64,000 nucleotides of DNA from positions 32,001 through 96,000 of IMG/VR virus record IMGVR_UViG_3300028888_001547; one strand, given 5' to 3'. This document shows, piece after piece, positions 63,030 to 64,000 of the stretch (within the stretch, counting starts at the first letter, position 1; each line of letters starts with the position of its first letter). The notes beneath the pieces are model-generated. The model did not search any database, was not told the origin of the DNA, and saw only the letters and a program-made list of their open reading frames with translations. The stretch comes from a virus. Lineage: Duplodnaviria; Caudoviricetes. The position numbers were made by a program, and so were the translations under genes.

Positions 63030-64000
63030 ACACCCGACATGTCCAAAGTAGTCGGCACGGATAATTACGTGAATGGTGATGGAAGGCAGGCTTCTTGTCT
63101 TTAGAATAAAGCAGCAATGCTATAAAGTGCACTCCTTTAGAAAGAGTGTGCGCAGATATGTGCTTTAGCACAGACTCTGTTCATAAGAAAGCTATACTAT
63201 ATAAGTATATCTTGGGATACTCGGGCAGAGTTGAAGAGGTATACGGTGGCTCTTGCTAAGCTACCTTGGGTGGTAACACCGACAATATATAGTATAATCA
63301 TACTCCAGAGGATTGCCAGTCCAATAGAGTGTGTAATCTATTAGTAATATCCTATTCATCAACCAATGGTGAACTCCAGCTGGTTACTTGAGTCAGAAAT
63401 GGTAGGATAAATAAAACTATTAGAAATGAGTAGTCTTGGCAGACGAAAATAGGAAGGTGTTGCACCTGGGCTGGTCAAAAGCCAGTATGGTGACAAGCAT
63501 GGCCACATCTTCCAAGCAGAGCTCTAGTTATCTATTTTTAGGCGAAAGCCCCACAAAAAGTATTTAACAAAAAGCAAAAGTGCTATGCACTCTCGTATGA
63601 AAATACGGTTGTTCTGCTGTAATACACAGATTGTGTGAGTACCGCAAGGAAAGCACAAAGGTGAAATCAAACTTATCTGGTTTCAGGATGGTATCCTGTT
63701 AAGCTACCAAAGCGCCATGAGTGAGAAATTAATCTACATAATGCGAGAGTAGTTCTTGCGACTTCTTTCTAGAAGCCGTCCGTATGCTATCTACCTGATA
63801 AAAACAGGTGTGTGGATACTCTAAAAGGAGTGGAAAAGATAGTACAAAAGGTCAACACTCAGCCTTTTATTTAACGAAATAATTGATTTACACCCCAATA
63901 TAGCCTAATTGTAGTAGTAGGGAAGAGCCGTGAGATTAACCTTCCAAGACTACAAACCTTCAGACAGCACGTGATGCTGTTATTTCATAGCTTCCGAGAT
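63030..64000 (+). ncRNA. Candidate large structured ncRNA or ncRNA array
   Basis: No track ORF of 60 aa or more; many long-range helices, GNRA loops and AGUA/GAA motifs. Confidence 0.5.

Follow-up and report, generated by a model that had tools for sequence, protein, structure and literature searches.

A probable deep branch of the GOLLD RNA family, below the Rfam threshold, in a crAss-like phage and other gut and rumen phages

Introduction

GOLLD RNAs build a closed cage without protein, as few other natural RNAs are known to do. The proposed roles of the GOLLD shell include enclosing or binding transfer RNAs (tRNAs) or ribosomes. The env-38 GOLLD consists of 833 nucleotides (nt), with a 5′ domain (1–420) and a 3′ domain (421–833), and assembles into a D7 14-mer cage in which the 5′ domains form the caps and the 3′ domains form the rings (Kretsch et al., Nature 2025, PMC12286853). 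Here, we focus on a 64,000-nt stretch of viral DNA, called the window, that spans bases 32001–96000 of the IMG/VR virus record IMGVR_UViG_3300028888_001547 (106,598 base pairs (bp); rated complete by CheckV). The source sample of the record is a sheep gut metagenome. Positions 63084–63865 (+) of the window are, with high probability, the gene for a 782-nt noncoding RNA of the GOLLD family, and this RNA belongs to a deep branch, carried by gut and rumen phages, that falls below the Rfam threshold.

crAss-like phages are the most abundant gut phage group. The sequence of the major head protein (504 amino acids (aa)), which is 82% identical to its counterparts in cr272_1, cr124_1, and cr7_1 (Crassvirales, Suoliviridae, Oafivirinae), identifies the host genome as a 106.6-kb crAss-like phage of the Suoliviridae, Oafivirinae. 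Our literature search found no publication joining GOLLD with crAssphage. What is added here is a deep branch of the family with covariation, shared pseudoknots, evidence for transfer between unrelated phages, metatranscriptome support, and a switch in two loops.

Membership in the GOLLD family

The original prediction, made from the sequence alone, proposed a new large phage noncoding RNA that could not be matched to GOLLD or to ROOL. That the region specifies a large, ornate, noncoding phage RNA on the plus strand holds; that it founds a new family does not. Specifically, cmscan in permissive mode aligns 63452–63865 (+) end to end with the GOLLD model RF02032 (model positions 1–416 of 416; 85.4 bits; expectation value (E) 2.1e-22 for the 1.2 kb searched), and a genome-wide search returns the same match at E 4.5e-24. 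The RF02032 model spans only the conserved 3′ half of GOLLD. Run at gathering thresholds, the Rfam scan yields no match in the region, and therefore the RNA looked unmatched.

Pattern searches, three in IMG/VR and one in GTDB genomes, supplied relatives of the RNA, which were then sorted by nhmmer; sampling of the branch is thus biased by the search patterns used. Ten tested branch members score 59–103 bits against RF02032, and ten matching canonical loci score 184–325 bits. Therefore, the Rfam cut-off excludes the whole branch and not only the window copy. The consequence is that the GOLLD family is under-annotated, with a deep branch lying entirely below the cut-off.

The hallmarks of the GOLLD 3′ domain are present. 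In the cmscan alignment, the window RNA keeps UCAAAAG, AAAGCAAAAGU, the CGCAA loop, UAC..GUG, and the terminal GGUCAA..CUCAGCC, and it departs from the model at CUAAU, GAGUA, and the hairpin GGAA..AUAAUCC. The UCAAAAG loop, AAAGCAAAAGU, the CGCAA loop, and the terminal GGU..CUCAGCC are invariant across an alignment of 19 sequences (the window RNA and 18 relatives). In env-38, the conserved A's of the UCAAAAG loop make the A-minor bridge B6 (PMC12286853).

Two long-range pseudoknots provide a further link. Both emerged from a scan for non-nested covarying stacks. All 7 bp of pseudoknot 1 are present, in varying pair types, in each of the nine canonical GOLLDs and nine clade sequences tested, and six of its seven pairs have changed on both sides among the 19 sequences. 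Pseudoknot 2 is kept in six of the nine canonical GOLLDs and in all clade sequences tested; the three canonical GOLLDs without it are probably misaligned. Neither pseudoknot appears in the Rfam structure line, and therefore both constitute independent evidence of common descent. Finally, an IQ-TREE analysis of 71 distinct 3′ domains gives a 100/100 split: the window falls among 25 rows on one side, and the 46 rows on the other are canonical, made up of an environmental group and an isolate-genome group.

Structure and covariation

The RNA comprises two domains, the 5′ one of 368 nt and the 3′ one of 414 nt, in which about 30 helices and the two pseudoknots are maintained by compensatory evolution. 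In an alignment of 10 sequences, 92.9% of the cells in 169 pairs are paired, versus 39–44% in slid controls; 102 of the 169 pairs have changed on both sides, versus 22–33 in slid controls, and none of 500 shuffles did as well. The same structure mapped onto the 19-sequence alignment gives 170 pairs with 90.8% of cells paired (slid controls 39–42%), 111 of which have changed on both sides (slid controls 31–49). The plus strand of 63030–63880 folds at −249.6 kcal/mol versus −212.4 ± 8.1 for dinucleotide shuffles (z −4.6), better than all 20 of them; the minus strand gives z −3.7.

Much of the architecture drawn in the original prediction is borne out by the relatives. The helix at 63193/63286 keeps its outer 7–8 pairs, with compensatory changes at 8 of 8. 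The helix at 63452/63505 is paired in 99% of cells and opens the Rfam GOLLD model as its first stem, and that at 63589/63741, about 93% paired, is the long-range bracketed helix of the same model. Likewise, the GNRA loops are real and conserved (GCAA at 63115, GUAA at 63272, GAAA at 63396, and GCAA at 63644), as are the loop-E-like AGUA...GAAA motifs at 63430 and 63639. The suggestion that G-U pairs favor the plus strand also survives: invariant G-U pairs, such as 63086/63098 and 63457/63508, are compatible with that strand alone. By analogy, the GAAA loop at 63394–63401 recalls the conserved L11a GAAA of env-38.

Two of the predicted features fail. Apart from the window and its near-twin L121, no sequence keeps the 10-bp pseudoknot at 63173/63223 intact; taken together, 69.5% of its cells pair, and at 5 of the 10 pairs half of the sequences show a break. 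Its 3′ arm lies instead in a local covarying hairpin of CUCGGGCAGAG, which conflicts with the pseudoknot. The RNA was also said to continue beyond the window, and for the conserved RNA this is incorrect: homology with the relatives stops at 63865.

Several candidate structures were set aside. RNAalifold on the 19-sequence alignment was not used because it paired the termini spuriously and lost P1. The RNAalifold helices 629–632/637–640 and 164–165/846–847 (alignment A2) were dropped because they clash with the better-supported pseudoknots, and helix 194–195/211–212 (A5), only 19% paired, was rejected.

At the periphery, the window and L121 have entirely different sequences in the hairpin at 63754–63779 (GCGACUUC...GAAGCCGU), with changes that compensate each other. 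A bovine metatranscriptome variant differs at 13 positions in this hairpin, which marks it as a hypervariable peripheral stem.

Expression and continuity of the transcript

The RNA is present in rumen metatranscriptomes. In the coordinates of the locus (L001, in which 1555 is window 63084 and 580–638 is window 62109–62167), a sheep gut metatranscriptome (X2) contains exact contigs at 1555–1802, 1774–2096, and 2098–2421, with word depths of 381, 465, and 187. The first of these starts at the predicted 5′ end of the RNA. Exact X2 contigs on the flanking open reading frames (ORFs) have word depths of 2.7–9.3, about 100-fold lower. A bovine metatranscriptome from another study (X16) contains a 705-nt contig of a close variant that spans only L001 1572–2301. 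Parts of L001 without RNA contigs (e.g., 1331–1463 and 2661–2793) were not counted as silent. These signs of high abundance offer a natural system for asking what the cage does.

The contigs also bear on whether this is one RNA. The 5′ part (63084–63451) and the 3′ part could be two RNAs, or the whole could be a cis-acting leader or processing cassette for neighboring genes. Only a slim chance attaches to these possibilities. One exact contig (1774–2096) crosses the domain border at L001 1923, and the 705-nt bovine contig extends over both domains. All full-length relatives carry the two domains together, irrespective of the neighboring genes, and the flanking ORFs show far lower word depth, as given above. 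Set against this, RNA contigs run beyond the conserved 3′ end, a promoter and terminator scan of the plus strand finds no promoter-like site directly upstream of 63084, and the domains differ in their identity to L121 (99.2% for the 5′ domain versus 87.6% for the 3′ domain). This last difference suggests recombination within the RNA. We retain the interpretation that a single GOLLD-family RNA spans both domains.

Distribution among phages

The branch inhabits rumen and gut phages, both crAss-like phages and unrelated phages of 178–355 kb, and several copies lie in Prevotellaceae bins. L121 and L124 are near-identical copies and come from crAss-like siblings (head protein 88–92% identical). L122, L128, and nine rumen loci in Prevotellaceae or Prevotella bins are intermediate, and L116, L106, L105, L103, L092, L104, and L143 are distant but full-length relatives. 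A crAss-like head protein of the window type is absent from the phages carrying L122 (178 kb), L128 (212 kb), and L116 (355 kb). Nonetheless, the L122 RNA is 79.7% identical to the window RNA and is its sister in the tree. Such proximity despite an unrelated 178-kb phage points to horizontal transfer of the RNA between unrelated phages. Furthermore, GOLLD was not found in five reference relatives of the same subfamily (cr272_1, cr124_1, cr7_1, a Bohxovirus, and Dulem virus 42) by a search that recovers the window copy. Given its absence from these phages and its 79.7%-identical copy in the 178-kb phage, the RNA behaves as a mobile accessory gene.

GOLLD genes are carried by phages or prophages and often adjoin tRNA genes. 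tRNA arrays surround the RNA in L103, L104, and L106, and the variable linker of the L104 RNA itself holds a tRNA. tRNAs in GOLLD linkers have been described (PMC12286853). Besides tRNA arrays, a transfer-messenger RNA gene lies close to GOLLD on the phage contigs L103 (942–1349, −) and L005 (7739–8138, +). On four Prevotellaceae contigs from metagenome-assembled genomes (L136, L137, L141, and L145), each copy lacks one whole hairpin or sub-domain: L136 is missing the GUAA hairpin, L137 the P21a region, and L145 the first 3′ hairpin. Such gaps may be natural deletion variants or assembly artifacts.

Loops at the putative cage seam

In env-38, the kissing loops L21a and L21b join the cage's two half-shells. 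Specifically, bridge B8 consists of nt 656–657, a GC/CG dinucleotide of L21a that pairs with its own copy in another chain, and bridge B9 is the self-pairing L21b (PMC12286853). Counted from nt 421, B8 maps to positions 238–239 of the model, which are the conserved GC in loop cGCAA of the first of two neighboring hairpins. In the window, the equivalents of these two hairpins carry the loops UGGUA and UACCAAA. Neither contains GC or CG; rather, UACCA is the exact complement of UGGUA (5 bp).

Within the clade, both loops carry GC/CG in 17 of 20 loop types (L21a GGCA, CCGCAA, AGCU, or CGCG; L21b CGCAA). Three lineages have GC/CG in neither loop, and in each of them the two loops are complementary to one another. 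One is that of the window, whose sibling L124 has UGGGA/UACCA (3 bp); L113, unlike its sister L104, has GGGA/CCCC; and L115, L114, and L109 have GGGA/UUCC. In DNA of another gut metagenome (X5), a variant at least 90% identical to the window RNA (about 95% for contig 30) has GGCA and CGCAA, with a compensatory stem change. Judged from these comparisons, the P21a/P21b loop difference is a concerted change. The switch offers evidence, at the level of sequence, that these loops touch one another, or copies of themselves, in vivo.

By homology to env-38, the RNA could self-assemble into an RNA-only multimeric shell during infection, a proposal for which we judge the case evenly balanced. If a shell forms, its equatorial seam would be heterotypic, or closed off within one molecule, via UGGUA/UACCA. 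We put forward only tentatively, and consider rather doubtful, the broader notion that the seam of the GOLLD cage is re-codable, with at least three independent lineages having lost both palindromes and gained mutually pairing loops. If so, seam contacts would have changed in nature from homotypic to heterotypic, and such a switch could alter cage stoichiometry or keep the cages of co-infecting phages from mixing.

The same loops could be taken as the mark of a decaying GOLLD relic in which loss of the self-pairing GC loops is loss of function. Both seam loops are indeed unlike those of 17 of the 20 clade loop types, and the RNA is missing from the five reference phages of the host's subfamily. 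Decay nonetheless has only a slim chance: all helices of the window copy are still paired, the RNA is abundant in RNA libraries, and the new loops, mutually complementary over 5 bp and switched likewise in two other lineages, look like the product of selection.

The 5′ domain and the strength of the assignment

The 5′ domain of the window RNA resembles that of canonical GOLLDs only in part. The first ~48 nt and one GNRA hairpin (flanks UUGRG and RAYA) correspond with canonical 5′ domains, and the remainder is unalignable. The shared opening, found in the window, in the canonical L015 and L006, and in env-38, consists of P1 (GGCNG...CNGUC), a UAGAAUAA-like element, a 4-bp GNRA hairpin, and AUAAAGUG. 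A P1-type hairpin likewise opens L015, L006, and env-38 (supplement of PMC12286853). In L015, the counterpart of the hairpin at 63111–63122 is CUAC-GAAA-GUAG followed by GAUAAAGUG, and the GGUG-GUAA-CACC hairpin with its flanks recurs in both L015 and L006. A search by nhmmer with a 5′ domain profile finds only the clade itself and no canonical 5′ domain. We read the resemblance as homology with heavy divergence, as would be expected for the "less conserved 5′ region" (PMC12286853).

Could the RNA instead found a family of its own, large and ornate but without kinship to GOLLD? Rfam at gathering thresholds gives no match, the 5′ domain profile recovers no canonical GOLLD, and blastn of the RNA against INPHARED (50,697 phage records) finds nothing. 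We nevertheless regard a new family as scarcely plausible, given the full-length model match (E 2e-22), the motifs and covarying 7-bp pseudoknot common to all canonical GOLLDs tested, the opening elements of the 5′ domain shared with canonical GOLLDs, and the single alignment and tree that unite both groups. The chance that the region encodes protein under a reassigned stop codon (code 15 or 4) is negligible, even with some crAss-like phages recoding TAG or TGA. The original prediction listed no ORF in the region, and the plus strand of 63030–64000 indeed has none of at least 60 aa under code 11 (the preceding ORF ends at 63017). Codes 15 and 4 yield only short plus-strand frames, the longest of 70 aa and requiring 2 read-throughs, code 11 gives an uninterrupted frame for the 504-aa major head protein, and substitutions are pairwise-compensatory, not codon-periodic.

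Several points weigh against assigning the window RNA to GOLLD as a phage-expressed, cage-forming RNA. Its score of 85.4 bits lies below the RF02032 gathering cut-off of 150, so formal Rfam membership is lacking, and canonical GOLLDs offer no alignment for the greater part of its 5′ domain. The loops that should seal the cage are not those usual in the family, and the P21a/P21b assignment itself relies on the nucleotide numbering in the text of the cited paper (656–657 versus model 238–239) and not on its figures. The metatranscriptome contigs carry no strand, no true ends, and only a crude depth, so that they support expression but do not prove it, and they extend at least 85 nt beyond the conserved 3′ end. 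Finally, the nearest tRNA gene lies 5.9 kb downstream, with none adjoining. With these points taken into account, membership in the GOLLD family continues to be very probable. The features of the locus are collected in Table 1.

Table 1. Features of the GOLLD-like RNA and its immediate flanks (window coordinates)
Feature	Position	Strand	Observation
Whole GOLLD-like RNA	63084..63865	+	782 nt; limits of homology with 18 relatives; 170 pairs, 90.8% kept
Upstream flank, two small hairpins	63030..63083	+	Outside the conserved RNA; alignable with closest relatives only; no high-depth RNA contig
5′ domain	63084..63451	+	368 nt; helices covary; counterpart forms the cap in the env-38 cage
P1 hairpin AGGCAGG-CUU-CUUGUCU	63084..63100	+	91% paired; closing pair CG, AU, UA
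GNRA hairpin AGCA-GCAA-UGCU, then AUAAAGUG	63111..63122	+	Relatives have GUAA/GUGA loops and compensating stems
Multiloop-closing long-range helix 63193–63200/63289–63296	63193..63296	+	8 of 8 pairs changed on both sides
Local hairpin in near-invariant CUCGGGCAGAG	63218..63232	+	Inner 3 pairs 98% kept: GC, CG, UG, UA
Two hairpins, the second GGUG-GUAA-CACC flanked by UUGGG/GACAA	63245..63282	+	97.7% and 97.8% paired
Long hairpin with invariant GAUUGCCAGUC tip	63298..63334	+	14 pairs, 89% kept, 7 changed on both sides
Sub-domain closed by UCCUAU/GUAGGA, conserved CA-GAAA-UG loop (63394–63401)	63350..63407	+	Helices 10–12 of the 19-sequence test
AGUAG...CGAAA internal loop around hairpin GUC-UUGGCA-GAC, loop-E-like	63426..63450	+	Invariant or nearly so in 19 sequences
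3′ domain, Rfam GOLLD RF02032 match	63452..63865	+	414 nt; 85.4 bits, E 2.1e-22
First 3′ hairpin domain, invariant UCAAAAG loop (63470–63486)	63452..63513	+	99% paired; UCAAAAG is the model consensus
Pseudoknot 1, 63497–63503 (GCAUGGC)/63582–63588 (GCUAUGC)	63497..63588	+	100% paired in 19 sequences
Variable linker	63514..63569	+	Unalignable among relatives
Conserved single-stranded AAAAGCAAAAGU	63570..63581	+	Invariant in the clade; equals Rfam consensus AAAGCAAAAGU
Long-range helix 63589–63598/63741–63750	63589..63750	+	92.8% paired, 7 pairs changed on both sides
Pseudoknot 2, 63603–63608 (AUACGG)/63780–63785 (CCGUAU)	63603..63785	+	100% paired across the 19 sequences; both sides changed at 3 pairs
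Invariant AGUACCGCAAGGAAA: CC-GCAA-GG hairpin inside AGUA/GAAA loop	63638..63652	+	Invariant in 19 of 19; search signature of the branch
P21a-equivalent hairpin, loop UGGUA (63689–63693)	63684..63698	+	Aligns with the model hairpin of loop cGCAA; relatives GGCA
P21b-equivalent hairpin, loop UACCAAA (63705–63711)	63703..63713	+	Relatives CGCAA
Terminal hairpin AAGGUC...CUCAGCCUU, then U-run	63848..63866	+	End of the Rfam model; homology stops here
Nonconserved noncoding stretch, start of 390 nt	63866..64000, on to ~64275 (L001 2337–2746)	+	RNA contigs reach L001 2421–2616 (window 63950–64145)

Neighboring noncoding sequences

Downstream of the RNA, the stretch 63866–64275 has a fold z of −3.2 on either strand and is bounded by inverted copies of the AATTGATTT/AAATCAAT motif. 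It has no relative in the five related phage genomes or in INPHARED (blastn) and no Rfam family match.

Upstream, a type III hammerhead ribozyme match lies at 62109–62167 (+), after an ORF that ends at 62065 (43.4 bits versus a cut-off of 48.5; E 4e-8). Its core is complete (CUGAUGAG...CGAAAC), with a GUC cleavage site at ~62116; the closest relative, L121, gives no hammerhead match. RNA contig depth is low across the hammerhead and high on both sides. Between it and the next ORF lies a 460-nt noncoding stretch (62168–62631, +) with X2 depths of 1103 and 386 at 62195–62460, a 127-nt block (62219–62345) that is conserved in L121, and, at ~62505–62548, a terminator-like hairpin, GGGAGAG...CUCUCCC, followed by a U-run. 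This stretch could be another small RNA. Two motifs were put aside: TTGAAATCAAT was rejected as a promoter because its strict copies are too few, and CCTTTAAAC, found behind the hammerhead and 65 nt ahead of the RNA, has only 2 relevant copies and is not interpretable.

The record contains six tRNA genes above the Rfam cut-off and eight matches at E ≤ 0.01; ARAGORN detects no tRNA anywhere in the window. An Rfam tRNA match at 45307–45409 (−) scores 43.8 bits; its 103 nt exceed the length of a plain tRNA, and it may represent a phage tRNA with an intron or of some other unusual kind. Finally, window positions 650–3000 comprise 2.3 kb free of ORFs longer than 85 aa, with a core of ~150 nt (~2157–2316) that is 70–72% identical in cr7_1 and the Bohxovirus.

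Comparison with GOLLD and ROOL

The window RNA resembles ROOL in being a large ornate RNA of rumen phages with relatives near tRNAs, and ROOL forms a cage, an 8-mer (PMC12286853). No Rfam ROOL match exists at E up to 10 in 62800–64000 or at E up to 1 in L001. The closer comparison is with GOLLD. Like GOLLD, the window RNA is about 0.8 kb long and joins a variable 5′ domain to a conserved 3′ domain (368 + 414 nt here versus 420 + 413 nt in env-38), has the same conserved single-stranded motifs and the same two long-range pseudoknots, and is phage-borne, with relatives within tRNA arrays and one with a linker tRNA. Unlike canonical GOLLDs, it scores 85 bits (below 150), sits in a separate deep branch (100/100), has a 5′ domain that is mostly unalignable with theirs, is carried by a crAss-like phage with no tRNA gene adjoining it, and displays the P21a/P21b loops UGGUA/UACCAAA in place of GC-containing, self-pairing loops.

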